Shown here: piece by piece, positions 1 through 33,723 of the stretch
How positions within the stretch are numbered: the first letter of the stretch is position 1
Layout of the letters: each line of letters opens with the position of its first letter
Source of the DNA: Oscillospiraceae bacterium
Lineage (GTDB): Bacteria > Bacillota > Clostridia > Oscillospirales > Oscillospiraceae
Direction of reading: 5' to 3'
Length of the DNA: 64,000 nucleotides
NCBI GenBank assembly: GCA_017397565.1
Contig: JAFQIL010000027.1
Span: forward strand, 3,481-67,480
Program-made: the position numbers and the translations under genes
Notes under the pieces: generated by a model
Databases searched by the model: none
Told to the model about the DNA's origin: nothing
The model's input: only the letters and a program-made list of their open reading frames with translations

Positions 1-3000
1 GATTAAAACTGTCCAAAGCCTCCGAGGCGAATCTGCCGATATACTTCTCCAGGTAGGTCTCATCTTCATCATCGTCACGAGCCGCATACACGAAAGAGAC
101 CAGGAATGCGTTGAGAATCTGTGAAGCCGCCACTGCGCCCCATGTTCTGCGGATACCACCCTTCACGCCCCGCTTGTGCTGCAAGACTGCGTCCACAGCC
201 ATATTGAGGCTTGTGTTAGGCTCTGCGTAGAAGGATGTGATCATCTTTACGCCGCTATCCTTAGAGCGCATGATCTGACTGCGGGACAAAACCGAGTCGT
301 AAACCTGCGTCCGGGTGATGACCTCGGTAAACCTCTCCCCGGCCTTTTGGAAAAATGCGTCAGAAGAGGGGTCCAAATCAGGATTCTGTTTTGCGGTTTC
401 CCGTTTAACTGCGTTCCAAATGTAACACCAGCTGATTTCGTCTGCCAAGGCAGGCGCTCTCGACAAAATGTCCTCCCGGTAGTTCTTATCCTTGAAGAAT
501 CCGGCAAACTTCTCGCCGAAGCTGTCGTACTCCTTGCCCTTTATATACTCCACAGTGCTTTTGCCCATGTTGATATCGAACCGGCCCATCTCTTTGATCA
601 GCGCAATTGGTGCCCACTTTTTGACCTCTTCCCAGGTAGCCTTTCTGCGTTTGCCTTCGATCTTGGGACCGATAAAGTGAATGGGATCAATCAAAGCTTG
701 CGCCCGGACGAGAGCCGACGGCTGCTGTACTACCACGGAAGCGGACAGATACACCGCGCCCTTCTTATGAAGACCCACAAGCTTGTTGATAATACCGGCA
801 TCCGGGTCACTACGGGCGCCGCCGTTGATGTCCTCCAACAGCTTGCTGATGTACTTGTTTGCCTGTCTGCCGTAGGCGTTTTGGATTGCACCCTTGACAG
901 ATTCCGTGTTCACATTTTCTTTAGCCTTGCCGCTGTTGAAATTGTACACCCGGTTAAAGTCCTCAATGGGAAGCACAAACGCATGGTACATACTCATGTC
1001 GTTAACATGCTCAGACCATACCTCTGTAAAGCTTCCCAATACAATGGGATTGGTGGCTCTCGGCGTGGTTTTCTTGGAGAAACCGGAATTTTTCAGCTTC
1101 ACATGACCGGCAGGCTCGTTTTTCTTCTGCAGATACTGATCCGCAGACCGCAGGGGGAAGTAGTTTTTTTCCTTGAAAAGCTTCAAGTCATACAGCGCCA
1201 TGGATACCGTGTTGCCCTTCTGCGCCAGCTCGTTGGAAAGGTAGCTTTGCATATCTTCCACAAACCCCTGTTGCTCCTTGGTTAGTGTTCCCACGATTTC
1301 CGCCAGGATCTCAGGGGACAGGTTATAGGCATTGGCTGTGTTGATGGTGTACTTAATGGGAACACCCAGTTTAGTTCTCTCCACAACCTCCGTCTGACTG
1401 TCATACACAAAGCCGCCTTTTTGCAAATGCTCAAGAGCTTGATCACGGCGGGACAGCGCATACAGGCTCATGATCTGTTCCAGATTCAGCTGGAATTCTC
1501 TTCCGGTGGTGGACTTGAAAGTGTGCTGCTTTTTCAGATCCCATCCGTCGTAGCCGTATTTCTTCACCATGTCCCGGTAGTAATCCCTTGCCTCTGTCAC
1601 ATCCACCGCCCAAACATCCTCGCCCTTGCGGATGTTTTCATACAGCTTGGTAAGGGTATTGGAGCCAATGGCTCTCATGGCATAGATCGGCTTCAGAAGA
1701 CTCCAGCCAAACCGTTTCATACCAGCCATAGATGTGACCGCTTTGATATGCTCGCCGCCTACCGACTTGACCTCGTTTTGCGTGTTGACAGACAGCTGCT
1801 GCACCGTCTCTCTGCGCCCTTCCAGGAAGGTCTTGTTGGCATCACGAACTGCCTTGGACACCGCCTTCACCGCTTCGTAAACCTTTTCCAATTGTGTCAT
1901 GGTCATGTTGCGGATAGGTGTTTCCCCGACAGTTTCTACCAGTTCCTCAAGAATCCCGGACAGCACCTCATCGTAAGCGTTCTGCAGCACAGGATCAGAC
2001 TCTTTTTGGATCTTTTCGTACTCCGTGTGAAGCTTGGAAAGTTGCTCCCCGATCTTATCACCGGCATTGCGGACATTGTCGATCCGTCGGGAGATGTCCT
2101 GAACCAGTTTAGTCTTACCGGCTTTCATAGCCTCTTCCAGCTGCGCCTCCAGATCCCGGATGCGGCTTTCCGCATCAACTGTATCCATGTTGATGGCATC
2201 CAGGATTTCCGACACAGCAGACTTCATACCCTCCGGGATGTGCTTGTCCTTGCTCTCATGCAGCAGAAGGTCGTTCAGCTTTTTCACAGCCTTTTGAACC
2301 TTGTGCCGCATCTCGGTCTTTTGCCGCCCCTCGGTTCTCCGCTGAGACGCTTCCCGGTACTTCTCCGCCGTCCGCTGCCGTTCCAGCTTCCGTTCCCGTT
2401 CCAATAGATCCTTCATGGGTTTGGTAGCTTCTAAGCCAAGAAGCCTCTTGTCCATCCGGTCCAGCTGCCGGGCCATCCGCTTGGCGGTCTCCCGCATTTC
2501 GTTCAACTTGGCGGTGTCCCGGGGACCGGGAGCAAAGGAGTATTCAAAGATTCGCCGGTTCAGTTTGTCCAGCCGGTCTTCCAAATCCTCTGCGTTTTGG
2601 ATCTGATCACGGTACTGCTGAAGCTTCTGCCGCTCTTCATCCGTCTGCGCCGCGCTTTCTAAGGCGTTGGCGAGGAGATAGCGGTTGGAGGTTTCTTCAG
2701 AGGGACGGGCCTGGTAGCGGATGTCCTGGTTTGCAGGATCAAATGTTCCCACATTATCCGTAGCACTCTTTACTTGCTCCGGTCTAAATACAACCGTTTC
2801 AGTAGGTACGGTAATGCCGTCATACTTCGTGTTATTGATGCTGTTGAACAATTCCGCTGCCTCAACCATGTCACCGATGGCAGTTGCACTTACATCTTGG
2901 ATAATTTGGAAAGCATCCCCGGAATTTTGGCCGCCCATGATTGTGTTCAAAATAGCATTTACATCGTAAGTACCATAATTCTCAATAGAATAGTCCTCAT

Positions 3001-6000
3001 TTTTCGCAACCGTTTCAAGAAAACGCCGAACTTGCAACCTGCTGACAGTATCTTTTCCATATTGCAACGGATGTTTTACATTAAGATAAACACTGTATAG
3101 ATTGCCATAGACTCCGGCTTGCTCTGCAGAATCCGTAAAGTAGAAACCTTTTCCGTACATACCGCTGCTTTTTGCTTTGCTTCTGTCAAATACAGTAAAC
3201 TGCGCACCGCTTCCGTGGTACATAACCTTTGGCGTTCCGTCTGCACTGACAATCAAAGACGAAGGCTTACCGTAATTAAACTCCGGGTCGTTGGACTTGA
3301 CAAGATTATAAAGATCTGCTACGCTATATCTGGTGGTTGATTCATCTCTAACGGTGTCTGCGCTATGCAAATCTGCATAGGTAAGGCCGGGGATGGAGTC
3401 AGCCACTTTTTCTATGTATTTCAGATTGTGGAATCTCTTGTCGTTTGGGTGCTTGGGGTCTTGGAAAATTTCCTCAATAGTTATCCTATAAAGGGAAATG
3501 CTATTATCTGGATTCATCCCAAGGGAATACAGCCTGTGATCAAATGCGATTCGGTCAGTAGCAGGAGTTTTAGAGTTGTTGCTATGATGTTCATGAACCT
3601 CTGTGTCCAAAAGAATTCCGTTTTCGATAAGTTCCCTTATCGCTGTTAAGGCATCAACAGACAGGCCGCCTCCTCCGGAATGCGCAACAGTATTCCTTTC
3701 CCCGTCGCCAGAGATTCTAATTTCCCATCCATCGCCTGTACTTTTTTTCGTATCCTTGTTAATAACACTTCCGCGCTGTTGCTTTAAGAAGGCCTTAAAT
3801 TCTGATTTGCCCAAGACCATTTCTGGGATTTTTGCAATAGCAACAAGAGCGCCGTCGTACATTCTCCAATCACCAAACCAAGCTCTAAAAAACGGAGACT
3901 TTGCACCAAGGTCCATATAGTATTTATGCGCCCACTTTTGTGACTTTTTAAGATCTTCCGCGGAGAACTGATTCACACTCTTTCTGCCGATACTCCGCAA
4001 AGTGTGCACGTCCTGGATAGAAATAGGCTTGTTGTACTCTGGATACAACTGCTGGACTGTTGCCCTCGCCTGCATCTGCACCCTGCCGTTGGCAATGTTA
4101 TCGGAAACATCTATGTCTCCACTGATAACTTCGTCGGTATCTGCCAAATCTTTCTGCTTGACAGTTTCTATTTCCTCGGGTATAATTTCTTCATAGAAAG
4201 ATGCATCGTTCAACACCGAAGGCACAGTGCTGCCGGAAGTTCTTTGCGGCGCATCTTTCTTTTTTTCATAAATCACTTCGTTGTTTGAATTTTTCAGAAG
4301 TTCTTTCAGTTTTCCGGTTTTCGGAGGATATGTCGTAACAAGAATATTATACAAGCCGCCCTCATAGCCGTTCATATAAACAGAGTCCTTGTTGTTACCA
4401 ATCTCTATAACTGCAAAAGCTTTATCGCCTGATTCTGTGCCAAATTCAACCACCAAGACATATCGATCGTTGACATTTTGGTAGACAATATATCTAGGAT
4501 CGTTCATTCCTTCGATCATCGCAATAATTTCTTTTGGAGATAGACGATTTAATCTTCCGTTCTCTTCTCCCTCTCTTGTCATTGCATTGTAAGCTTTATC
4601 TGCGCTAATTGCTATCGGGTTGTTGTCAATAATATCTCCTTTCTTCTTTTTGGCCCAATAGATAAGCGTAGCTGGTGTGTTAATTCTAACCGGGATGTAT
4701 GTATTGCCATAAATATCGCCGTTTTCAACTTTCTTCAGCAATTCTAAAACATCCGCTTTGCTTACAGTTCTAGGATCTAGCTTATCTGGATTTTTGGTGG
4801 ATGGCTTTGCCTGTTGCTGGATACCCTCACTATCCACCGCGCCATAAGCCGTGTAATTGTCGCTTGCCTCCACAAGGGCAGCGGCAAATATTTTTTGCAG
4901 TTTTTGCAAAGATTCGCCCATCTGCGCCACAGTCTCTGCTTCCTCAGAACCCGTAGACAACTTGGCGTAGATGTTACGAATGCGCTTGATCAGATTGTCC
5001 AGGAAGTTCTTGATAGCCTGCACGACCCTGGCTCCCTCGGGGCTGGACTCCTTCAGCTTTACCAGCTCGTTTTGCAGATTGCCGTCATTAAACAGCTTCT
5101 GCATGGAGTCTGCCACCACTTCCCGGAACGCCTCATCATAGCTGACATCCCGGTCCCACAGGTATTCCAGTTCCTTCTGCTTGGCTTTGACTCTCTCATC
5201 CATGGACTTTCCGGTCTTGTCGTACTCGTTGATGAGGAAGTCTGCCAGTACCTTATACTGCGCCGGAGCATTGTTCTCGATAAAGTGGGTCAATTCGTGG
5301 GCAAGGGTGTACAGAGTCGCGCCCTTACTTCCCGCAAAGGTGTTCAGATCGATATAGATCCGCCCGTCTTTTCCGGTATACATACCGTTAGGCGCGCTGT
5401 GCAGATTTCCCTTGGAGTCCCGGAACACCCACTTGCCGTTTACCTTTTCGGACTTGAAGAAGACGATCTCACCGCCCAGGCCCAGTTCATTTAAGAATTT
5501 TGCCGTATCCACGCCAACCTTCTGCGCCTTGGATAGAGACTGGTTTGCCTCATCAAAGGCAACGGTGTGACCCTTCATGTCGGTAAAGTATACGCCCCTG
5601 GTTCCTTTCGACTTGGTGCCAGCCTCTGCGGCGGCCTTGGCTTCGCTCTGCGCCTGCTTCTGCTTGGCATCATATTCTTCCCTGGCTTTCTTGCCGTAGG
5701 CATACAGTTCATAGGACTGGCTCTTGGGCATATTGAAGCTGTCCAGTTTGCTTTCGCTGTAGCCGTACCAGCCTGCCTGGTAGGCGTCGATTGCCTCGTT
5801 GATGTAGCTGGGATTTTGGGAATCGACATGCTGCGCCATGAAGTTCGCCGCCCGGACGGTCAAAGTACGGGACTTGGACATAGCTTCATGCAGCATGGCT
5901 TCTTGTTCATTGGCATACTCGATCTCAGACTTGTCAACAACCTTATCGCCCATGTTATAGGTGATCTTTCCGTTGCCGACACTCTCGATCTGTAAGCTTT

Positions 6001-8251
6001 CCACAGCCTCACCGGTGTCCGTCCGGTAGGTCTTCCCATTCTGGGAGACCTTTGGAGCTTCCTTTGCTGTCGTTTTGGTTTCAGGCCGCCCGGACAGCTT
6101 GTTTTGTACCACATTGTAAGCCTGTGTCCGCCGTCCCGCCTGGGTTTCCGGATTCAGAAGCACCGACTGAACCGCCTCTGCCAGCTCCCGGCTGTTCTCC
6201 ATGACAATCGCTTGTGCCTCTTCTGTCAGGCTGAAAAAATACTCAACAAGGTTATTGGCCTGTTTCGCGGTTAACCCCTGCTCCTGAAGAGCCTGTGTCA
6301 GCGCAGCGGTATTCTGCGCAGTCATTTCCGTACTAAAATCTTGCCACATTCTGCCCATAGTGTAGGCATTGACCTTTTTGCCGGAAGAAATTCTGTCATT
6401 TACCCCCTGCGCCAAGGCATACTGCGCACTGTCGGCATCAAACTCCATGCCAAGATTCGTAAGGTCTTGGGCGGTTACCCCTCCCAACATAAGCTGCTGT
6501 CCTGTTCTGGAGGTGTTTACAGTTTCCGCTATGTTGCCGGGACCGCCAAGAACAAGACCGGAAAGACCGCCAAGCAAAGATTCATAGGCAACCTCTTCCC
6601 AGTCCGGCCTGTCTTGCTGGATATTGGTTGCAACCTCTTTAAACCACGGCTCTAAAACCGCCTGAAGGCCTTCTTCCAAAGCTTCGGAGCCAAAATTGCT
6701 GCCCATTTTGATGGCGACACGGGCAAGGACATTGTCAACCTTGTCAAGAATACTGCTGGTAATTTTGCTGGAAAGTTTACCGCCAAAATACGGGATTGCG
6801 TCCAGCAAGTAAGAGAGTCCCGCCTCAGATCCTCCAACCAATGTCGCATAGGTTCTTGCCTGACCTTTGCTATAGCCTGCGTTGATCATGTCTGCGTAGG
6901 CATTGCCGGCTGCACCAATACCCAAGGCAGCAGAACCGGCACCGGGACCGGCGACAGCACCGATAGCCATAGACGGTGCTTGGTTTGCAGTGTTTTGCAA
7001 AAAGTCAAACGCTAACTGTCCCAACGAATGACCGAACAATTTCGGACCGTCATCCGCAAGCTCCTCCCGTGCGTTTGCGCCGTAATACTCAAACTGTCCG
7101 GTGGGGATGTACTCGTCGCTGCCGGTTACCATGTTCCATGTTCCCTTGATCTGTCTGCCTAAGTTCCCAACAGCTGCCCAAAAATGTGCCTTTAAAGCTG
7201 CCATGGTGCTGCCATTGTCGAGTGCGGTGCGTTCGTCTGCCCATCTCTTGTTTTGCCGATCCTGAATAGACTTGTCGTATTCATCCGCCGCAGTTTTGCC
7301 GCCCGTATTGTAATGATAAATGAAGATTGCCTTTTCTTCAGGAGTCATGTAGGTGAAGTGGTCATAAATATCATTGTTGGGGTCGTACCACTCGTCATAA
7401 TGGTTTTCAAGCCAATATTCGTAGTCCTCGTCATAGATAACATCGTACTGGTCGTCTTCCTGTGCACCGTTTTTAGAAGGACCTACAAATTTACTTTTGG
7501 CTTCAAAGTCCGCATTGTTAACAACATCCTCAAGCTTGGCCCATTCCTGATAACGCTTGGAAAGGTTGTAATACTGCTCTTTTTCCGAATAAGCAGCTTG
7601 CATCTGCTCATATCCACCCCAGGGACTTGTGATCTCTGCCAGTCTGTCTTTCAAAGCCTGCTCAGCTGCCATAGCCTGAGAAGAGTCTGCGTAGGCATAG
7701 GGATTAAAGGAACCGATCTGCGCGTATATTTCCGATGCCTCGTCCACAACAGGCTTCATGACATCCATTTCCGTTTGCAATTGTCCAAGGTCAGCATTCA
7801 GGTGGCCTTGATAAACTTGGTTAGCTTGGTAGGCTTCCTGATATGCTGCCTCGTTTTCAAATTTGGAGTAGTAATTGTAGACATCTGTGTAGTTCTGCTG
7901 AAGTGCCGCCATGGAGTTGCGGAAAGATGCGTCATCCATTTTTTGATCTTGACCAAGGTTTTTGGACAGGTTCCATAAGTCTGTTGATGTTTTGGTATAG
8001 ATGTCCGCCGCATTTTTATAGGCAGCAAGATCTTCGGCGGAAAGATATCCGCCGCTGCTGATCTTATTGCGGTACTGCTCCAGGATGTCGTAAGCCTCTT
8101 TATTCTGCCGCTCCCAGCCGTACACGATTGCAGAGTCGTAGGATCTGTTCTCAGTCGGCGTAAACGCACCTACCCCCGTCCTTCTGTCTTCTGTCGGAGT
8201 AAACGAACCTACAGTGCGTCGCCTGTTAGTAGTTGCTTGATATGTGGCCAT
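1..8251 (-). CDS. Giant (>2750 aa, 3'-partial) polyvalent/internal virion protein with zincin metallopeptidase and ADP-ribosyltransferase-like domains
   Basis: Hand translation from ATG 8251 (MATYQATTNR, RBS AAGGGG) showed no stop to the window edge; frame checked at HELTH (~5285-5299), YHGS (~3209-3220) and position 2. Missing from the ORF track because its stop lies outside the window. Confidence 0.85.
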   Translation of the reverse strand, partial: MATYQATTNRRRTVGSFTPTEDRRTGVGAFTPTENRSYDSAIVYGWERQNKEAYDILEQYRNKISSGGYLSAEDLAAYKNAADIYTKTSTDLWNLSKNLGQDQKMDDASFRNSMAALQQNYTDVYNYYSKFENEAAYQEAYQANQVYQGHLNADLGQLQTEMDVMKPVVDEASEIYAQIGSFNPYAYADSSQAMAAEQALKDRLAEITSPWGGYEQMQAAYSEKEQYYNLSKRYQEWAKLEDVVNNADFEAKSKFVGPSKNGAQEDDQYDVIYDEDYEYWLENHYDEWYDPNNDIYDHFTYMTPEEKAIFIYHYNTGGKTAADEYDKSIQDRQNKRWADERTALDNGSTMAALKAHFWAAVGNLGRQIKGTWNMVTGSDEYIPTGQFEYYGANAREELADDGPKLFGHSLGQLAFDFLQNTANQAPSMAIGAVAGPGAGSAALGIGAAGNAYADMINAGYSKGQARTYATLVGGSEAGLSYLLDAIPYFGGKLSSKITSSILDKVDNVLARVAIKMGSNFGSEALEEGLQAVLEPWFKEVATNIQQDRPDWEEVAYESLLGGLSGLVLGGPGNIAETVNTSRTGQQLMLGGVTAQDLTNLGMEFDADSAQYALAQGVNDRISSGKKVNAYTMGRMWQDFSTEMTAQNTAALTQALQEQGLTAKQANNLVEYFFSLTEEAQAIVMENSRELAEAVQSVLLNPETQAGRRTQAYNVVQNKLSGRPETKTTAKEAPKVSQNGKTYRTDTGEAVESLQIESVGNGKITYNMGDKVVDKSEIEYANEQEAMLHEAMSKSRTLTVRAANFMAQHVDSQNPSYINEAIDAYQAGWYGYSESKLDSFNMPKSQSYELYAYGKKAREEYDAKQKQAQSEAKAAAEAGTKSKGTRGVYFTDMKGHTVAFDEANQSLSKAQKVGVDTAKFLNELGLGGEIVFFKSEKVNGKWVFRDSKGNLHSAPNGMYTGKDGRIYIDLNTFAGSKGATLYTLAHELTHFIENNAPAQYKVLADFLINEYDKTGKSMDERVKAKQKELEYLWDRDVSYDEAFREVVADSMQKLFNDGNLQNELVKLKESSPEGARVVQAIKNFLDNLIKRIRNIYAKLSTGSEEAETVAQMGESLQKLQKIFAAALVEASDNYTAYGAVDSEGIQQQAKPSTKNPDKLDPRTVSKADVLELLKKVENGDIYGNTYIPVRINTPATLIYWAKKKKGDIIDNNPIAISADKAYNAMTREGEENGRLNRLSPKEIIAMIEGMNDPRYIVYQNVNDRYVLVVEFGTESGDKAFAVIEIGNNKDSVYMNGYEGGLYNILVTTYPPKTGKLKELLKNSNNEVIYEKKKDAPQRTSGSTVPSVLNDASFYEEIIPEEIETVKQKDLADTDEVISGDIDVSDNIANGRVQMQARATVQQLYPEYNKPISIQDVHTLRSIGRKSVNQFSAEDLKKSQKWAHKYYMDLGAKSPFFRAWFGDWRMYDGALVAIAKIPEMVLGKSEFKAFLKQQRGSVINKDTKKSTGDGWEIRISGDGERNTVAHSGGGGLSVDALTAIRELIENGILLDTEVHEHHSNNSKTPATDRIAFDHRLYSLGMNPDNSISLYRITIEEIFQDPKHPNDKRFHNLKYIEKVADSIPGLTYADLHSADTVRDESTTRYSVADLYNLVKSNDPEFNYGKPSSLIVSADGTPKVMYHGSGAQFTVFDRSKAKSSGMYGKGFYFTDSAEQAGVYGNLYSVYLNVKHPLQYGKDTVSRLQVRRFLETVAKNEDYSIENYGTYDVNAILNTIMGGQNSGDAFQIIQDVSATAIGDMVEAAELFNSINNTKYDGITVPTETVVFRPEQVKSATDNVGTFDPANQDIRYQARPSEETSNRYLLANALESAAQTDEERQKLQQYRDQIQNAEDLEDRLDKLNRRIFEYSFAPGPRDTAKLNEMRETAKRMARQLDRMDKRLLGLEATKPMKDLLERERKLERQRTAEKYREASQRRTEGRQKTEMRHKVQKAVKKLNDLLLHESKDKHIPEGMKSAVSEILDAINMDTVDAESRIRDLEAQLEEAMKAGKTKLVQDISRRIDNVRNAGDKIGEQLSKLHTEYEKIQKESDPVLQNAYDEVLSGILEELVETVGETPIRNMTMTQLEKVYEAVKAVSKAVRDANKTFLEGRRETVQQLSVNTQNEVKSVGGEHIKAVTSMAGMKRFGWSLLKPIYAMRAIGSNTLTKLYENIRKGEDVWAVDVTEARDYYRDMVKKYGYDGWDLKKQHTFKSTTGREFQLNLEQIMSLYALSRRDQALEHLQKGGFVYDSQTEVVERTKLGVPIKYTINTANAYNLSPEILAEIVGTLTKEQQGFVEDMQSYLSNELAQKGNTVSMALYDLKLFKEKNYFPLRSADQYLQKKNEPAGHVKLKNSGFSKKTTPRATNPIVLGSFTEVWSEHVNDMSMYHAFVLPIEDFNRVYNFNSGKAKENVNTESVKGAIQNAYGRQANKYISKLLEDINGGARSDPDAGIINKLVGLHKKGAVYLSASVVVQQPSALVRAQALIDPIHFIGPKIEGKRRKATWEEVKKWAPIALIKEMGRFDINMGKSTVEYIKGKEYDSFGEKFAGFFKDKNYREDILSRAPALADEISWCYIWNAVKRETAKQNPDLDPSSDAFFQKAGERFTEVITRTQVYDSVLSRSQIMRSKDSGVKMITSFYAEPNTSLNMAVDAVLQHKRGVKGGIRRTWGAVAASQILNAFLVSFVYAARDDDEDETYLEKYIGRFASEALDSFN

Positions 8252-19171: not shown

Positions 19172-19264
19172 GCGCCTCCCTCCTGTATACTTTCATCGTA
19201 ACATTCCAATCGTCCCCCCCCTAAAAGCGCAAAAAAGAGGAGGCCGAAGCCTCCCCTTTGTTCC

Positions 19265-21979: not shown

Positions 21980-22169
21980 CTTCTGCCCTCCTGTTCCATG
22001 CTTTGATTGCCGCTTTTTCCGTAGGATAATTGCGGTATGTTCTGCCAAGACATTTTGTGTCTTTACATCTTGGGAAAAAGCCTTCAGGTTTCCAGTGGTT
22101 ATAGCAACTGCGTTTGTGGCCGATTTCTGCTTCTCCACCGCAAAACGGACAAGACTTTAATTCAGCCAT
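21969..22169 (-). CDS. Lar-like restriction alleviation protein
   Basis: LKSCPFCGGEA ... AAIKAWNRR signature. Confidence 0.7.
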   Translation of the reverse strand: MAELKSCPFCGGEAEIGHKRSCYNHWKPEGFFPRCKDTKCLGRTYRNYPTEKAAIKAWNRRAEDGK

Positions 22170-22974
22170 CTTTCAATTCCTCCTCAAACATATTTTTCTG
22201 CCGCGGCATATCGAAATTGCACCACAGAACCTCTGTCCGCTGATCCGCGTTCTGATTGTAGGATTTTCGGGTGATCCTGCCCCACCCTTTCAGTTCATGG
22301 TCGTACATCTCATGTGGGTACCCGGAAAGAATCACTGGGCCTTTGTGCTGCAGGAGTGCTGCCAGCAGATCAATGTGATCCTGCTCAGTCATTTCGTACC
22401 GGTACTGCTTGCCGCCTCTCGTGTCCAGCAGATACGGTGGGTCTGCATAGATCAGAACATTGTCAAAGTTAAAGCGCCGAATAAGATCCAGTGCCGGCCG
22501 GTTTTCAATTTGTACCTCTTTCAGCCGCCCACACAGTTGCTGTACCAGTTCCGGCATCTTCGCCCAGTACCTTGCTGCATAACTACCTTGGCGTCCTGCA
22601 ATATCGATTTTGAAACCGGTCTGAGTATAGGTCTTGAAACCGTATCCCATCTTGGATCTGATAGCAAAGCGGTAGGCTCTGTCCAGAGGATCTGCGCCCC
22701 GGTTTTTGTGCGCATCATCGAATACATCACGGGCATAGGGTGTCAGGTCTATAAGTCTGGACAGTTCTTCCGGTTGCTCCCGGAGGACAGTGAAGAAGTT
22801 CACGATGTCGCCGTCTATGTCGTTAATGGTTTCGATTGCAGAAGGCGGCTTGTTGAACAGCACCGCACCGCTGCCGAAGAACGGCTCCAGGTACGACCGG
22901 TGCGGAGGCATCAAGGAAACAATCTCTTCTGCCATGCCCCACTTTGCACCGGGGTAGTTAAGTAATGCGTTCAT
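22162..22974 (-). CDS. DNA adenine methyltransferase (D12 class)
   Basis: YPGAKW, EPFFGSGAV, NDID and DPPY motifs. Confidence 0.92.
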   Translation of the reverse strand: MNALLNYPGAKWGMAEEIVSLMPPHRSYLEPFFGSGAVLFNKPPSAIETINDIDGDIVNFFTVLREQPEELSRLIDLTPYARDVFDDAHKNRGADPLDRAYRFAIRSKMGYGFKTYTQTGFKIDIAGRQGSYAARYWAKMPELVQQLCGRLKEVQIENRPALDLIRRFNFDNVLIYADPPYLLDTRGGKQYRYEMTEQDHIDLLAALLQHKGPVILSGYPHEMYDHELKGWGRITRKSYNQNADQRTEVLWCNFDMPRQKNMFEEELKDG

Positions 22975-24016
22975 CGTATTCTCCTCTCAAACAGTGATAT
23001 CTGTTCCCCTGCGTCTGCAACAAACTTTGGCGGATCGTCCAGCATCCTCCACCGGAAAGTCCTATCTGACGGGACCTTCCGTTCCACTTCCATCTGAAAG
23101 CGCCGGTCAAAGTCATGAACCGTGTGGCCGTCTGCCTTAAAGGTCACCGGACTGTCTGTGTCCCATTTCAGAAGTAAGGCCCAGTGATCCGGGTAATTAC
23201 GCCAAAGGTTGCGTAAGGAATCCACGCCCTGGTTGTGGCAGAACCAGCAACCATCTCTGCAAGATATCTCGTAGGAAGGTCCCAGGCACCGCCCATATTG
23301 GCAGTACAGGCCACACAGATCCTCTTCAATGCCGAACTCCACCAAGGGAGCCCGTTTCCATTCGTTCAGTTGCCCGAACCTATCAGGCTCGTCAGCAGCA
23401 ATACCCAAATACTCCACGATATTTCTTTTCCCGCGCCTCGTGGGGCGCTCGGCGGAGAGGGGGGTGTTCTGACCTTGTCGATTTTGAGTTTCCGGCACCA
23501 TGGGGATATCTGACATGGGAATCCTTGTATCCGGTACCCATGTATGCTTGAGCTTCTGGCAATAGTTGTATCCGGTGTTGGGAGGGAATCCTGTAATCGT
23601 TCCCTGCACTCTGTGGCTTGGCATTCCGCTTGAGTCCGGCTTGACACCACGGATTCCACAAGTCCGGGAAGCCGAGGATCGATCCGGGCTTGAGCCCGTC
23701 TCTCTCTCTCTCTCTCTACTTGAACAGATTGTGAACGGCGTACCGGCACATGATAAAACATCTGCTCATAGGTCTTTTTGCTGCCGTCCTTGTTCCGGGC
23801 ACACAGATGTTCTACATCTATCCGGTACAGATTCCAGATCCGCTCGTCCATCCGAGCTTTGAATTCCTCCATAGGCGGCAGATTGGCGGATACGGTATCC
23901 GTTGCCCACACATCGGTGGTGGTTATCCTATCCAACGGTAAATTCCTGGTGAAGATCACATCCAGCATTTTCAGACTGTCCTTGCCGTAGGATATTCGGG
24001 CTATGTATTCAGGCAT
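22971..24016 (-). CDS. PAPS-reductase-like (PP-loop) protein split by a frameshift, with three alternative central cassettes
   Basis: N-half has SYGKDS (frame of ORF 23366..24022); C-half has YLGIAADEPDR and GCWFC (frame of ORF 22971..23624). The span is 1046 nt, so it needs -2 or +1 nt to be in frame. Confidence 0.8.
23699..23717 (-). repeat. (AG)9A dinucleotide tract, candidate phase-variation site
   Basis: TCTCTCTCTCTCTCTCTCT on the + strand, inside the PAPS-reductase-like gene. Confidence 0.9.
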
Positions 24017-24025
24017 GCCCACACC

Positions 24026-25831
24026 TCACACTGCCACGGCGTTATGGAACTGCGCCATAGTGTCCAGCTTGCCGACGCCCCACTCCGGGAAGTTCGCCCG
24101 GACCATAGCTTCCGCCAATGGTGGGCAGACCGCGTTGCCGCACCGAGCTACCTGCTTGTTCTTGCCGTAGGCGTTACCCATGTAGTCCTTTTCAATCTGA
24201 TAGTCCACCGGGAATCCCATTGCGTTATAAAGCTCTCTGGGTGTCAGCATCCGCAGAGTGATATCCGCAATGAAATAAGCAATGCCCCGGATGATCAGCA
24301 GGATAATCTCATCTTCCTTCAGATCATAGCCGCAATACTTGTTCAGAAGTTCCCGGATCTGCGGCCACCGGCCAAGATCACGCCCCTGCTCCACCTTTGC
24401 AAGAACTGCTCTGCATTCGGCATATTCCAGGCCCTGGGCGGTGATGGTGTTTAACGTGTCAGTGGGGTGTTGCCCCAGCTCCTGCCCCTTGAACTTCACC
24501 ACATGGGCAGAGCACAAACCATGCCGCGGCAAAGCGGTAACTGTAGACAGTGGGTCGCCAACTCTGTCGCCGCAGCCCTTATATTCGCCATTAAAATACT
24601 TGTCGATGTGAGCACAGACCACCGCCTCCCTGTCGTGTGCCGTCACAGTATGCAAAGGCTGCACCGCATCCAGAGGATTGCCGTTGCCGTAATATTCCAC
24701 CAGCTGTGCGCTTGCTAAGCCGTAGCGGTTGGCTGCATCCACCGTCTGGATGGGATCTCTAACTGATTGCCCACGCACCTTCTCTGTCTGCTCTGTGTGG
24801 TATTGGATCAGATTGGCAGCAGACAACACCTGCCCGCCGGCAGAACGTATTGTATGTACTGGCTCATTTGCCGCAGATCCAACACTTCCACCTGTGTTGC
24901 TGAAAGTGAACGGCGCCATAATCGGCCGTGCCACCTCATGTGACCCTACCGCTGTTACCGTAGTCAATGGTCTATCAACACTCTGTGCAGCGTTGGCAAA
25001 TTTTTGCTGAACAATGAAAGGCTTTCCGCTCTTGATGGTAAACTTGTCCACACCGCGGATTACCCGGCGCAGGGTGTTGTCTGCCAAAGGCCGGATTGCG
25101 TTGACGCCGTACCGCTCCTTGATTTCCTGCTTGCTGTCGAAGATAGAATAGTTGGGCAGTGTCCAGTCGATGATTTCCGCAGCAGAACGCCACGGTTTCA
25201 ATTGTCCGGTCTTGACTTCCTCACTGTCTCGGGGTGCATGTGTCCGCTCCGGCCAGACAATCGGCTTACCATCGCAACGGGCAATTAGTGCAAACCGTTT
25301 CCGGGTGGTAGGCGCACCATAGTCAGCTGCTATCAGTTCCCGGTACTCCACCACATAGCCCAGCTCCTCAAGCTGTTTGATAAACTGCTTGAAGGTCTTC
25401 CCGGAATGTTTCTTCACGGGTTTGCCCTTGCGGACAGGCCCCCAAGTTTGAAACTCCTCTACATTCTCCAACATGATCACTCGGGGACGGACGGTACCCG
25501 CCCACCGCAACACGATCCAAGCAAGGCCCCGAATCTTCCGGTCCCGGAGCGCCGCGCCCTTTGCCTTGGAGAAATGTTTGCAATCCGGAGAGAACCATGC
25601 AAGGCCTACCGGACGGCCCTTGCAAACCTCCACAGGGTCTACATCCCAGACGGATGCTTGCAGGTGCTCTGTGTACGGGTGATTCGTCTTGTGGAGTAGG
25701 ATTGCGTCCGGGTCATGGTTGATAGCAATCGCTACCGGTCTTCCTGCCGCCAACTCAATTCCCGTGGAAGCTCCGCCACCGCCGGCAAAGTTGTCCACAA
25801 TGATCTCGTCAAAAATATCTATTTGGCTCAC
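24026..25831 (-). CDS. DNA cytosine-5 methyltransferase with repeated variable region
   Basis: FAGGGG (motif I), SPDC (IV), ENVEEF (VI), RKR (VIII), GNAVCPP (X); GTG start at 25831 with GGAGG. Confidence 0.92.
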   Translation of the reverse strand: MSQIDIFDEIIVDNFAGGGGASTGIELAAGRPVAIAINHDPDAILLHKTNHPYTEHLQASVWDVDPVEVCKGRPVGLAWFSPDCKHFSKAKGAALRDRKIRGLAWIVLRWAGTVRPRVIMLENVEEFQTWGPVRKGKPVKKHSGKTFKQFIKQLEELGYVVEYRELIAADYGAPTTRKRFALIARCDGKPIVWPERTHAPRDSEEVKTGQLKPWRSAAEIIDWTLPNYSIFDSKQEIKERYGVNAIRPLADNTLRRVIRGVDKFTIKSGKPFIVQQKFANAAQSVDRPLTTVTAVGSHEVARPIMAPFTFSNTGGSVGSAANEPVHTIRSAGGQVLSAANLIQYHTEQTEKVRGQSVRDPIQTVDAANRYGLASAQLVEYYGNGNPLDAVQPLHTVTAHDREAVVCAHIDKYFNGEYKGCGDRVGDPLSTVTALPRHGLCSAHVVKFKGQELGQHPTDTLNTITAQGLEYAECRAVLAKVEQGRDLGRWPQIRELLNKYCGYDLKEDEIILLIIRGIAYFIADITLRMLTPRELYNAMGFPVDYQIEKDYMGNAYGKNKQVARCGNAVCPPLAEAMVRANFPEWGVGKLDTMAQFHNAVAV

Positions 25832-26136
25832 AACCCTAACCTCCTCTTTATGTACGCCATCCGCATATCCCACCACTTCCAGTAGTTGCCGCAGGGGATG
25901 TTGCACAGATGCTCCGCCTTGCAGTCCACGCAAGGACCTCTCTGCAGAAACTCCCGCACATCGTCAGGGTGACTGTACTGGAAGAACTTTCTGTTTTTCT
26001 CCGGTCTTACCAGTCTTCTGGCCATGGCGTTGATCTGCTTCTGCCGGTACCGATACCGGATCTTCCAATCTTCACATCCTTGTCCACCTGTGCAGACCTT
26101 CTCGCATTTATCACACGGACTCGGATACTTGTCCAT
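25828..26136 (-). CDS. Cys-rich hypothetical phage protein
   Basis: MDKYPSPCDKC..., two PCxxC...C repeats. Confidence 0.55.
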   Translation of the reverse strand: MDKYPSPCDKCEKVCTGGQGCEDWKIRYRYRQKQINAMARRLVRPEKNRKFFQYSHPDDVREFLQRGPCVDCKAEHLCNIPCGNYWKWWDMRMAYIKRRLGL

Positions 26137-30934: not shown

Positions 30935-31981
30935 TTATTCTCCTTCCGTTGTATTGCCCCGCAGGGCGTTTTCAATTGCAATATCCATTCCTAAAGACAG
31001 TTTGTAGCAATCCCCATGGGAGAGGTGGTTCTTCCAGGCACCGTAGGATGCTTGGAACTTCTCCATCGGCAGCTTTCCGGCTGCCACCAGTTTCGCCATC
31101 CGCAGAAACTTCCGCTGAGCATTGCGCTTATTCTGATTCTTCAGCCTGCGGATCGGCCTGCCTCCCGGCGTGATGTATGTATGGAAACCCAGGAAACTTA
31201 CCCCATTCTTAAACGGGAATATCTGCGTCTTGCCGTTCAGCTCCAGCTCCAGTGTCTCCAAATACGCGGTTATGACCTCCAGGCAATCCTGCAAGTACGC
31301 CTTGCTTGGATGGATCAAATAAAAATCATCCATATACCTGCCGTAGTATTCGATCCCCAGCTCATGCTTGATCAGCTTGTCCATGCCGTCCAAGTAAAGC
31401 AGCGCAAAGCCTTGGTTGATCTGATTGCCCAGCGGCAGTCCCTTCCCCTCGGTGCTGTCGATAAACAGCTCACAGAGCCAACAGATATCCGGGTCATCGC
31501 CAAAGTGGTACCTGACAATATCCTTCAGCTGCTCGTGGGCAATGTTGTAGAAAAACTTGGTGACATCACACTTGAGGATGTAGCCATCCATGCCATACCG
31601 GTCATAAAACTGCTGCATCTGCTCACCGAGCCGGTTAAGGCCGAACAATGTGCCTTTGCCCTTCTGCCCGGCACAGTTATCCCGGAGGAATACCCGCTGC
31701 AGCCTGGGCATGATCACGTTGTCGCACAGACAATGCTGTATGACCTTATCCTTAAAAGCCGTGGTTTGAATGATGCGCTCCTTCGGCTCGTACACCTTAA
31801 ACTCGGTGTATTCTGATACCGTATAGGTCTTATCCTTCAGCTGGGAAATGAGGGTGTGTACGCCATCCAGAGCGGCCACATTGAACCGCGCAGAACTCTT
31901 TTTGTACCCTTTCCCACATTTCGCCTTGCGGAATGCCTTATACATATTCTGAAAATTCGTTACTTTCTCAAACTCGGTCAT
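30935..31981 (-). CDS. DGR reverse transcriptase
   Basis: EPKERII, FKDKVIQH, GKGT, LKCDVTKFF, GLPLGNQINQ, RYMDDF and FLGF motifs; about 348 aa with no maturase or endonuclease domain; start MTEFEK at 31981. Confidence 0.95.
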   Translation of the reverse strand: MTEFEKVTNFQNMYKAFRKAKCGKGYKKSSARFNVAALDGVHTLISQLKDKTYTVSEYTEFKVYEPKERIIQTTAFKDKVIQHCLCDNVIMPRLQRVFLRDNCAGQKGKGTLFGLNRLGEQMQQFYDRYGMDGYILKCDVTKFFYNIAHEQLKDIVRYHFGDDPDICWLCELFIDSTEGKGLPLGNQINQGFALLYLDGMDKLIKHELGIEYYGRYMDDFYLIHPSKAYLQDCLEVITAYLETLELELNGKTQIFPFKNGVSFLGFHTYITPGGRPIRRLKNQNKRNAQRKFLRMAKLVAAGKLPMEKFQASYGAWKNHLSHGDCYKLSLGMDIAIENALRGNTTEGE

Positions 31982-32087
31982 ACAGCCTTGCCCTCTTCTG
32001 TTTATCCGCTTTGCGGAAAGGTCGTGCGTTCTTTTGATGTGGTGCATGGATTTCGGCTGCTGCCTACTCTGTCGAGCGCTCCACCAG

Positions 32088-32158
32088 AACGGGCGAACGC
32101 CGTTGTTGTCGTTGTTGTAGTTGTCATTGTTGATGTTGCCGGACGGCGAGACGCAAAG
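32088..32158 (-). repeat. DGR template repeat (TR)
   Basis: CTTTGCGTCTCGCCGTCCGGC-AAC ATC AAC AAT GAC AAC TAC AAC AAC GAC AAC AAC-GGCGTTCGCCCGTT between avd and RT. Confidence 0.95.
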
Positions 32159-32185
32159 AAAAATACAACGCACGGCCTGGGTATC

Positions 32186-32554
32186 TTATTGCCGTTCCTT
32201 CGTTCTCCATGCCAGAGACATATATTTCACATCCCGTACCATCTTGGACCAGTATTCTGCTGAACTGTCAGTCAGCAGCCCCAGTTCCATGGACAGTTCT
32301 ATGTAAAACAGCAGCTCGTCGCATAATGTGATCGCCCTGGTTATCGTTTCGCACCGCTCCTGCTTCCGGGTCATATTGTTTACCCGGTTCGCTTCGAACA
32401 GTGTGTCATATATATCCAGGCTCTTTATCTGCATGCGGTCTACGAGGGAATGGCGATACTTCTTTGGGTATCGGTTGCAGTTGGATGTAAGTTTGAAGGT
32501 GTGAACCGCCAGTTCCTTCGCCTTGACAATCACCTTCAAATCATTCTCAGCCAT
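32186..32554 (-). CDS. avd: DGR accessory variability determinant (Avd-like four-helix bundle)
   Basis: 122 aa with YPKKYRHSLVDRM motif, immediately upstream of TR and RT. Confidence 0.88.
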   Translation of the reverse strand: MAENDLKVIVKAKELAVHTFKLTSNCNRYPKKYRHSLVDRMQIKSLDIYDTLFEANRVNNMTRKQERCETITRAITLCDELLFYIELSMELGLLTDSSAEYWSKMVRDVKYMSLAWRTKERQ

Positions 32555-32557
32555 CGA

Positions 32558-33097
32558 TTACTCCTCGAAAGATTGAAAGATAGTAGATTTGAAGAATAAA
32601 AACGGGCGAACGCCGCCGTCGCCGCTGCCGCAGTGGTCATCGCGGATGCGGCCGGACGGCGAGACGCAAAGGGTCCAGTACGGATCATCGTGGGGCTTCG
32701 CAGAATCCGGGGTAGCAAGCCACCACCAACCGCTGGCAGGGTACTGATCGAAGATCTCCACATTGGCGCGGTAGAACTCCAAGGTAGGCAGGCTGATAAG
32801 GGATTCCATTACGCCGTAGGTTTTGAGACCGCACAGAGTAGTAAGATCTGTCTGCACAGTGCAAAGATTCTCTTCTCCCACCGCCTCGATGATTTTGGGA
32901 AGGATCTCTTTTTCCATCCGCTTCAGTACATCACTGGTACGCAGATCGTTGTTGTCACCAAACCGGGAGTGGAAAGCGATGTCCTTCATCACCACAGGGG
33001 TCTTACCATCCACCTCGGGAAACTTGATGAATTCCATACCCGCTACCTGGAAGGTAGCGCCATCCTTTACGCCGGAAAAGTTGATAGTCTTATCCAT
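32558..33097 (-). CDS. DGR target protein 1 (CLec-fold / DUF6273-like)
   Basis: WWWLATP...CVSPSG[VR]GVRPF C-terminus containing VR1. Confidence 0.88.
   Translation of the reverse strand: MDKTINFSGVKDGATFQVAGMEFIKFPEVDGKTPVVMKDIAFHSRFGDNNDLRTSDVLKRMEKEILPKIIEAVGEENLCTVQTDLTTLCGLKTYGVMESLISLPTLEFYRANVEIFDQYPASGWWWLATPDSAKPHDDPYWTLCVSPSGRIRDDHCGSGDGGVRPFLFFKSTIFQSFEE
32601..32671 (-). repeat. DGR variable region VR1
   Basis: 71-bp match to TR with 14 mismatches, all at TR adenines. Confidence 0.95.
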
Positions 33098-33111
33098 GAT
33101 TATTTCTCCTC

Positions 33112-33723
33112 TCATTTCGATACAAAGATATTAGATTTTAAGATGCAAAACGGGCGAACGCCGAGGAAGTCGCCGAAGTAGCCGACACCGCTGATGCGGC
33201 CGGACGGCGAGACGCATTTTACCCAGTTGGCATTTTCGTGAGCAGGTGTGCTGTAGGGCGTTGCCAGCCACCACCATGCATCCAGCTTGTGCTTATCCAG
33301 GATCTGCACGAATTTCCGGTACATATCCGCTGTCAGCAAGGACGCCTTGCGCTGTACCGTGCCGTAGTCCTTTAATCCATCGTCAGATGTGAGATCTACC
33401 GTGTGCAGGATAAGATTTTCTTCACCAACAAGTTCTGCCAATTCTTCGGCAAACTCATTGCAGATCTCATCCACATTGGATTCGTCATAATTGTTGTTTC
33501 CGCCGAATTCCTCTCCGGTTTTCAGCAAGTCCTTCCGGATCAGCGCTGTACCCTCTTCCCGGTGCTCCAGCACGATGAATTCATGCTTGCCCACCTTTAC
33601 GATGTCCCCGGGAGCCGTGTCCGCCAGCTTCACCGCCGGCAGCTGAAAGCTGTCTTTGATGCTCTCGACCTGCTCATCAGTCAAGCCGATCTTCTGCCCA
33701 TTGATGGAAATGTAATTTTTCAT
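33112..33723 (-). CDS. DGR target protein 2 (paralogue of target 1)
   Basis: WWWLATP...CVSPSG[VR]GVRPF C-terminus containing VR2. Confidence 0.88.
   Translation of the reverse strand: MKNYISINGQKIGLTDEQVESIKDSFQLPAVKLADTAPGDIVKVGKHEFIVLEHREEGTALIRKDLLKTGEEFGGNNNYDESNVDEICNEFAEELAELVGEENLILHTVDLTSDDGLKDYGTVQRKASLLTADMYRKFVQILDKHKLDAWWWLATPYSTPAHENANWVKCVSPSGRISGVGYFGDFLGVRPFCILKSNIFVSK
33149..33216 (-). repeat. DGR variable region VR2
   Basis: 68-bp match to TR with 16 mismatches, all at TR adenines. Confidence 0.95.

Follow-up and report, generated by a model that had tools for sequence, protein, structure and literature searches.

A candidate three-frame cassette switch in a prophage gene related to PAPS reductases and DNA phosphorothioation enzymes

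A prophage gene of a gut Clostridia genome is frameshifted between its two constant halves as assembled, and between these halves lie three diverged copies of an active-site loop, one in each reading frame. Is such a gene broken, or does it work, and how could ribosomes arriving in any of three frames reach the one frame of the C-half? We propose that the three loop copies would form a heritable three-way switch, in which a repeat tract would choose the cassette and a slippery run with a predicted pseudoknot would shift ribosomes back by -1 or -2 into the C-half frame, such that one gene would give three full-length versions of a probable DNA-modifying enzyme. We put the probability of this whole explanation (tract-set choice of cassette, return by frameshifting, and a probable DNA-modifying enzyme) at roughly 0.62, judging from comparisons of sequence. 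The parts of the gene in the window, by which we mean the whole stretch of 64,000 nucleotides analysed, are as follows.

23718..24016, minus strand: constant N-half, from the PP-loop SYGKDS to TYEQMFYH; matches the N-part of the family profile
23699..23717, minus strand: entry tract (AG)9A, the proposed frame selector; a sequence feature whose length differs among near-identical relatives
23685..23698, minus strand: small hairpin after the tract; present here, not conserved, probably incidental
23629..23679, minus strand: cassette A, GFPDLWNPWCQAGLK, in the third frame; would need a -2 (or +1) return
23547..23597, minus strand: cassette B, GFPPNTGYNYCQKLK, in the C-half frame; no shift needed
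23483..23530, minus strand: cassette C, GFPCQISPWCRKLK, in the N-half frame as assembled; would need a -1 return
23454..23465, minus strand: putative slip site, with C-half-frame codons CCC (23462-23460) and CTC (23459-23457); a variant of the family's TTTTY run
23414..23448, minus strand: putative H-type pseudoknot, from sequence pairing anchored on relatives
23448-23444 with 23437-23433, minus strand: putative stem 1 of the pseudoknot
23443-23438 with 23419-23414, minus strand: putative stem 2 of the pseudoknot
23432-23420, minus strand: putative A-rich loop of the pseudoknot; contains GGGAAAA (23426-23432)
22971..23426, minus strand: constant C-half, from YLGIAADE to RDGCWFC; phrog_424, E 5.6e-8

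The tract, the three cassettes, a C6 run (23459-23464), two hairpins and a heptamer had been named in the original prediction, and all are found on the minus strand where it had placed them; cassette B shares the frame of the C-half and C that of the N-half, with A in the third, also as claimed. The cassettes are spaced by 82 and 67 nt. The stops nearest to the block are at 23768 (upstream) in the C-half frame, 23368 (downstream) in the N-half frame, and 23718 (just before the tract) and 23394 in the third frame; all of these lie outside the block, and the three frames are thus open from tract to exit. None of 20,000 first-order Markov sequences and none of 20,000 shuffles of the 239-nt block is stop-free in all frames. 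A scan of the 64-kb window found no dinucleotide repeat of at least five units other than the AG tract.

Four protein-based scans gave 263 loci, some of them duplicated, three of the scans being limited to their 80 best matches (out of 433, 247, and at least 416). With the window included, 223 loci have both anchors, and 180 of these are distinct; 8 loci are without the C anchor and the remainder without the N anchor. Cassettes of the GFP..WC..LK type are present in two or three frames in 72 of the 180 distinct genes, which we refer to as multi-frame; 90 are plain, being short and in frame by definition, and 18 are others. Of the 72 multi-frame genes, 67 have an AG or G tract separating the halves, versus none of the 90 plain ones, and several of the tract-less multi-frame genes bear (GAAG)n or G5-G6 runs that are outside the search pattern. 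The last three cassettes are spaced 3n+1 and 3n+1 in 37 of 43 three-frame genes, and the cassette register relative to the C-half rotates among lineages (120, 012, and 201). On the test proposed with the original prediction, homologues do share multi-frame arrays, AG or G tracts, open frames and 3n+1 spacing, but not a C tract at the exit, where the run is mostly T4-T5.

Multi-frame genes occur in phages and prophages of gut Clostridia. In a quick tree of 161 rows they fall mainly in two well-supported clades with plain genes between, and the locus counts are therefore not independent; the two clades may reflect a single origin with losses, or module exchange. Four of the 12 GenBank phage matches (nd4, phiCD119, AR1074-1, and NatCom_21982) carry plain or in-frame two-cassette genes without a switch, and among 300 genomes of the host family three have a match, the two examined being plain genes.

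Several variants of the layout are seen among these loci. Nested arrangements of two tracts, with as many as four cassettes, are present in L019, L040-L043, L102, L110, L161, L169, L180, L184, and L227; some of their modules are longer, taking in the preceding TYE..FY helix, and the tract types are AG, G, and GAAG. Tandem cassette pairs in a single frame are found in L020, L022, L134, L137, L157, L158, L167, L170, and phage nd4 (L264); these in-frame genes have no exit element, their off-frames are full of stops, and L020 has its AG tract after the cassettes. They are possibly a precursor or an end state of the switch. In one clade among L269-L345, a second G-run lies just before the CxxC, at R-G-G-C-W-F-C of the C-half, and the window is without it; of these 77 loci it is G8 and in frame in 22, and G7 or G9 and out of frame in 7, and is likely an added ON/OFF switch.

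What enzyme would be switched? A PAPS-reductase-fold gene related to DNA phosphorothioation enzymes was predicted, and this assignment is supported by both fold and profile. The SYGKDS PP-loop, as expected of the PAPS-reductase fold, is nearly invariant in the family, and the structure model of a plain relative (pLDDT 93) has a PAPS reductase as its top VIA match (Z 11.8, rmsd 3.1, 158 aligned). The plain relative matches phrog_424 (E 5e-25) and, over residues 4-212, the SspD profile of PADLOC (E 7e-9), placing it by remote similarity with a Dnd/Ssp profile. Neither it nor the window gene matches a Pfam family, including PAPS_reduct, and there is no match to a CysH model in NCBIfam. The C-terminal catalytic motif of CysH is ECGLH, and this is absent from a 77-sequence family consensus. 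Four cysteines are conserved in the family, one of them inside the cassette. PDB chain 21fy_C (PptA) is the only family-like match among solved sequences, a weak profile match (E 0.005) over the cassette and CxxC region, and the literature searched holds no paper on it. In the model of a natural in-frame three-cassette product (L001) the core is intact, the linker is looped out of the fold, and residues 124-151 are disordered.

The variable part of the cassettes is the counterpart of the DndC loop GYPAPTRSFRW and has the same loop pattern; recognition of the DNA motif is predicted for the DndC loop, and mutating this loop abolished modification (PMC12193691, in part). This match to a published specificity loop makes switching of DNA targets plausible, if unproven, and by analogy with DndC we give even odds that the cassette loop would set the DNA target. 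Phosphorothioation would be the most likely chemistry, which we suggest tentatively.

The setting of the gene bears on the same issue. The host bin (1.8 Mb, 61% complete) is metagenome-derived, with the window being its contig C29, and the prophage occupies the first 37 kb of the window, with terminase, portal, major head, replication and recombination genes, and an integrase. The cassette gene is the sole member of its family in the host bin and lies on the minus strand between two DNA methyltransferase genes.

24026..25933, minus strand: C5-cytosine DNA methyltransferase, the upstream neighbour; PF00145, E 3.9e-26
22162..22974, minus strand: D12-class N6-adenine DNA methyltransferase, the downstream neighbour, overlapping the C-half stop; PF02086, E 1.5e-18

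A fixed methyltransferase partner is not supported, as neighbours vary between loci; by tblastn, methyltransferase neighbours are present at 7 of 54 multi-frame versus 16 of 54 plain loci. We also note a diversity-generating retroelement in the same prophage, adjoining the immunity region (30938-33723, minus strand), comprising Avd and a reverse transcriptase, a pair of target genes in tandem, and a template repeat at ~32088-32158; mismatches in the variable copies at 32601 and 33149 fall at template adenines in 14/14 and 16/19 cases, respectively. The only other long homopolymer found in the window is a C8 run (19214-19221; G8 when read on the minus strand) that separates the terminase small subunit gene from the next upstream gene. 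At the edge of the window, an open reading frame of 2,750 aa or more (1-8251, minus strand) matches unnamed PHROGs only.

It is conceivable that the same switch acts on another substrate, such as tRNA, a nucleotide or signalling molecule, or a host defence protein, without sequence-specific marking of DNA. The best Foldseek matches are TtuA, NcsA, MnmA, and LarE (tRNA thiolases and PP-loop sulfur transferases; E 1e-4 to 1e-3), no Dnd/Ssp partner is named among the 37 prophage ORFs in a PHROGs scan (in a host genome 61% complete), and the inconstancy of the methyltransferase neighbours also points this way. In contrast, VIA ranks the PAPS/APS-reductase branch above the tRNA thiolases for the plain-relative model, the closest profile is that of SspD, the variable part is exactly the segment that gives DndC its target specificity, and the window gene sits between two DNA methyltransferases. 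We regard a substrate other than DNA as unlikely, though a serious candidate.

The choice among the loops would lie with the tract. The AG tract would gain or lose units in replication by slipped-strand mispairing and so set the frame, with the present length giving cassette C, one unit less cassette B, and one unit more cassette A. Among clusters of near-identical genes (blocks at least 97% identical with tracts masked), tract length differs in 10 of 24, many of the others being one contig fetched twice; with new loci added and identical blocks collapsed it differs in 14 of 15, a figure that the collapsing inflates and that is drawn from assembled consensus lengths, which are error-prone at repeats. 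AG runs of 16, 18, and 20 nt within one cluster provide all three frames, and one bin has two gene copies with tracts of 19 and 21 nt. The N-half is in frames 0, 1, and 2 in 16, 13, and 14 of the 43 three-frame genes. Repeat length thus changes frame among near-identical genomes at the level of the family, as in a simple-sequence-repeat (SSR) contingency locus, but the shifted frames are not null, as ON/OFF switching would have them; they are open and hold conserved cassettes.

For the tract of the window itself, there are contigs from 4 of 20 runs, and three of these break inside the tract, although a co-occurring relative sharing the flank could produce such a break, and the breaks are not taken as variation in length; contigs of three runs are identical to the block on both sides of it. 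An IMG/VR search with the tract's flanks returned the contig of L001 alone and no near-identical copy. The proposal of a three-state cassette switch set by the entry tract is supported by the cassettes, the tracts, and the frame-wise selection of the relatives, but its entry hairpin is not, as only 8 of 29 AG-tract genes fold there at <= -6 kcal/mol.

Selection is evident in each of the three frames. Of the 43 three-frame genes, 41 have a tract by the search pattern, and 39 of these 41 are stop-free in all frames between the last tract and the exit; both exceptions hold a second, later tract. Stops in the blocks number 5 in 9,242 codons versus 660 in 16,061 off-frame codons of the constant halves (0.0005 versus 0.041 per codon), and in genes with two cassettes it is the unused frame that contains the stops. 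Between nearest cassette pairs (19, 36, and 35 pairs for frames 0, 1, and 2), synonymous and non-synonymous changes in the cassette's own frame number 67/32, 134/47, and 105/36, and the ratio is reversed when frame-1 cassettes are read in the other frames (12/159 and 12/160). In two cassette types that are absent from the C-half frame (15 and 16 occurrences), third positions account for 12 of 14 variable columns and for 7 of 7, respectively. Change of this coding type in their own frames implies that off-frame cassettes are used as protein. These sequence patterns make it very probable that the switch architecture is real and under selection.

The same data weigh on a simpler arrangement, in which activity is confined to the cassette in the C-half frame, the tract turns the gene ON or OFF, and the other cassettes are a silent store drawn upon through rare indels or recombination. 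The rotation of cassette register among lineages would suit such a store, but nearly all variation in cassette types never found in the C-half frame is at third positions, some genes carry the cassettes that follow their last tract solely in frames 1 and 2, and the unused frame of two-cassette genes fills with stops. Furthermore, the off-frames stay open until the slip codon and close right after it, and the exit element would be left without a job. We consider a silent store improbable.

With off-frame cassettes apparently translated, a return to the C-half frame would be needed. A TTTT run on a C-half-frame codon lies 45-51 nt before the anchor in 66 of the 72 multi-frame genes and at 27 nt in one more, such that 67 of 72 have it versus 1 of 90 plain genes. 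In 63 of 66 runs the first T occupies codon position 1. Among 56 distinct exits, the same residue is coded one base on in 54 and two bases on in 53, and the run reads as Phe (Pro/Leu in the window) in all three frames. A perfect 5-bp stem follows in 54 of 56 exits at a spacing of 7 nt (42 exits), 8 nt (10), or 6 nt (2), with ten sequence variants; it is found in none of the 90 plain genes and at 1.7% of control positions. A second stem of five pairs, between the loop and the C-half start, is complete in 47 of 54, with 256 of 270 cells paired versus a mean of 229 and a maximum of 238 in 2,000 partner shuffles, all below the observed value. In an ungapped subset of 18 sequences, 7 of 12 pairs change on both sides versus 1.3 in shuffles, and slid controls reach at most 55% paired, although relatedness of the sequences can inflate both the stem-pairing and covariation controls. 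RNAalifold gives no consensus structure on a MAFFT alignment of the 54 exits, pseudoknots being beyond the method; in that alignment the stems are out of register and the window row is miscut, and pairs were therefore counted by anchoring and, in an ungapped subset of 19 exits, with a pair-counting tool. The window exit folds like its shuffles (z -0.19) by a single-fold method that does not handle pseudoknots.

Over 39 loci, the 60 nt that precede the slip codon contain 0 off-frame stops in total and the 60 nt that follow it contain 66, and their onset right after this codon locates the change of frame to the run. The hallmarks of a frameshift signal are all present: a slippery run of fixed phase, a spacer of 5-9 nt, and a conserved downstream structure. 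A canonical X XXY YYZ heptamer is absent; the codon preceding the run is GGG or CCC in 18 of 67 genes, the window has CCC-CTC, and in many relatives this codon re-pairs poorly. A scan of IMG/VR with the exit as a DNA pattern returned 77 hits, all of this family and all at two in-phase lengths of the seven allowed, a family specificity partly built in by the eight C-half bases within the pattern; among 37 new distinct blocks, 35 are multi-frame and 34 have a tract.

The original prediction had placed the return elsewhere. Its G-GGA-AAA heptamer fares poorly: only 2 of 72 multi-frame genes have an XXX-AAA/TTT word at that place, one being the window and the other L232, whose word is simply its exit run. 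The heptamer is private to the window, where GGGAAAA falls in the predicted pseudoknot loop. An off-frame stop also follows the upstream run within 10 nt in 21 of 39 three-frame genes, well before the heptamer position.

Read most simply, the exit would act on the ribosome: a tRNA on the run would move back one or two bases, pushed by the pseudoknot. As the run starts on the first base of a C-half-frame codon, a backward slip would go no further than the C-half frame. In most genes the spacer is 6 nt when measured from the -1 codon and 5 nt from the -2 codon, and on a U6A run -2 shifting is best at spacers 1-2 nt shorter than those for -1 (PMC3458567, in part), a rule that these two lengths, as seen from frames 1 and 2 respectively, fit, with the caveat that this study was non-bacterial and that the family runs (T4-T5) are shorter than U6A. 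The CCC-CTC exit of the window is atypical, being common to the sister L002 and loosely to L164; a -2 slip on it re-pairs both tRNAs and a -1 slip, needed as assembled, re-pairs one. It would thus be ideal for -2 (cassette A) and weaker for -1 (cassette C). Cassettes not in use would be translated as a flexible out-of-frame linker. Phasing, spacing and pairing together suggest that the exit probably acts on the ribosome, with -1 or -2 return.

A split enzyme would also accommodate the stops that closely follow the run: off-frame products would end after the cassette, and the C-half would be re-initiated at a GTG in NIVEY, with the structure serving translational coupling. A GTG is at the NIVEY position in 66 of 72 multi-frame genes, and the 3' arm of stem 1 resembles a ribosome-binding site. 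However, the GTG lies within stem 2, whose pairing is kept where the codon is not a start (L019, L105, and L155), the G-rich arm is separated from the GTG by a long stretch of variable length (loop of 10-13 nt), and re-initiation gives no account of a phase-locked run coding the same residue in three frames. We view it as a rather remote prospect.

Slightly more remote is a return at the level of DNA or transcript, by an indel in the exit run, as in the predicted gain or loss of a C in the C6 run, or by RNA polymerase slippage. The window does have a C6 run, and homopolymers can slip, but exit runs are T4-T6 (T4-T5 in most relatives) and of identical length within 15 of 15 near-identical clusters, and gain or loss of a C is discarded as the route of return. 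Nor would polymerase slippage demand the phase seen in 63 of 66 runs, and the structure lies downstream, untranscribed at the time of slippage.

A decaying duplication or assembly artefact, suggested by a gene frameshifted as assembled in a prophage from a metagenome bin, is refuted by conservation, as dozens of diverged phages share the design and show selection of the coding type, contigs of three runs agree with the block on both sides of the tract, and true decayed remnants (L053, L109, and L113) look different. These remnants appear locked, with the tract lost or short and surplus cassettes or the exit element eroded; tract loss thus coincides with eroded exits in them, and the in-frame two-cassette genes are without both tract and exit.

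The likely use of a three-way cassette switch would be bet-hedging, with progeny differently marked against host restriction or modification-dependent defence. A broader formulation, which we offer as a conjecture falling somewhat short of even odds, is that this is a new generator of diversity in which mutually exclusive three-frame 'exons' are chosen by slippage and funnelled by a pseudoknot into one constant C-half, nested tracts provide at least four states, and a stand-alone phage enzyme resembling those of DNA phosphorothioation draws its recognition loops from the cassettes as from an exchangeable alphabet. If the switch is true, a bacterial-type gene could give alternative proteins without splicing, inversion, or recombination, and a recoding signal would merge frames where known ones split them. 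Working switches may then be hidden among the many gut-phage genes annotated as broken, and the natural loop variants on a constant scaffold would offer a handle both on the function of the common phage 'PAPS reductase' genes and on how a DndC/SspD-type loop codes for its DNA target.

Frame-multiplexed cassettes are not described in the literature searched, which comprised titles and abstract openings; word searches of the first 300,000 characters of PMC5009743 and of PMC3711429 likewise find none. The parts are each known, and it is their combination, frame-multiplexed modules with a frame-merging signal, that matches no system found there or otherwise known to us. In phasevarions and Type III mod genes a repeat in the coding sequence sets the frame, heritably and reversibly, with shifted frames OFF (PMC3711429, in part). 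The gene described here resembles such SSR phase variation in having a repeat within a coding sequence set the frame of a DNA-modification-type gene, and differs in that each frame carries a different cassette and a second element appears to restore the frame. Fletchervirus phages of Campylobacter have hypermutable poly-G tracts that turn receptor-binding proteins ON or OFF or truncate them; this too is repeat-driven phase variation inside phage genes, but these tracts are not known to come with frame-multiplexed cassettes or a frame-restoring signal. The futC gene of Helicobacter pylori combines a poly-C tract with a dnaX-like -1 frameshift site, and thus has a phase-variable tract and a ribosomal frameshift site within one gene, although the shift there rescues a single product, and neither alternative functional modules between the two sites nor a three-frame funnel is known.

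Sites for -2 frameshifting are known in arteriviruses and Trichomonas vaginalis virus. On U6A with a stem-loop or pseudoknot, both -1 and -2 outcomes are obtained in a spacer-dependent manner, and these U-rich sites share with our exit a U-run, a short spacer, and a downstream pseudoknot (PMC3458567, in part). They split one frame, whereas the exit here would merge three into one. The enzymes DndC and SspD have in common with the family the PAPS-reductase fold, PP-loop, G(F/Y)P..W-C loop, and CxxC (PMC12193691, in part). In contrast, the phage proteins are ~260 aa, remotely similar, and without recognised partners in the prophage, and the cellular genes are single-loop, unlike the multi-cassette phage genes. 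Invertible Type I hsdS loci and shufflons switch specificity by DNA rearrangement, and are alike in having one locus with mutually exclusive specificity modules and a constant enzyme; those modules are exchanged by inversion or recombination, whereas here they are fixed and would be chosen by frame.
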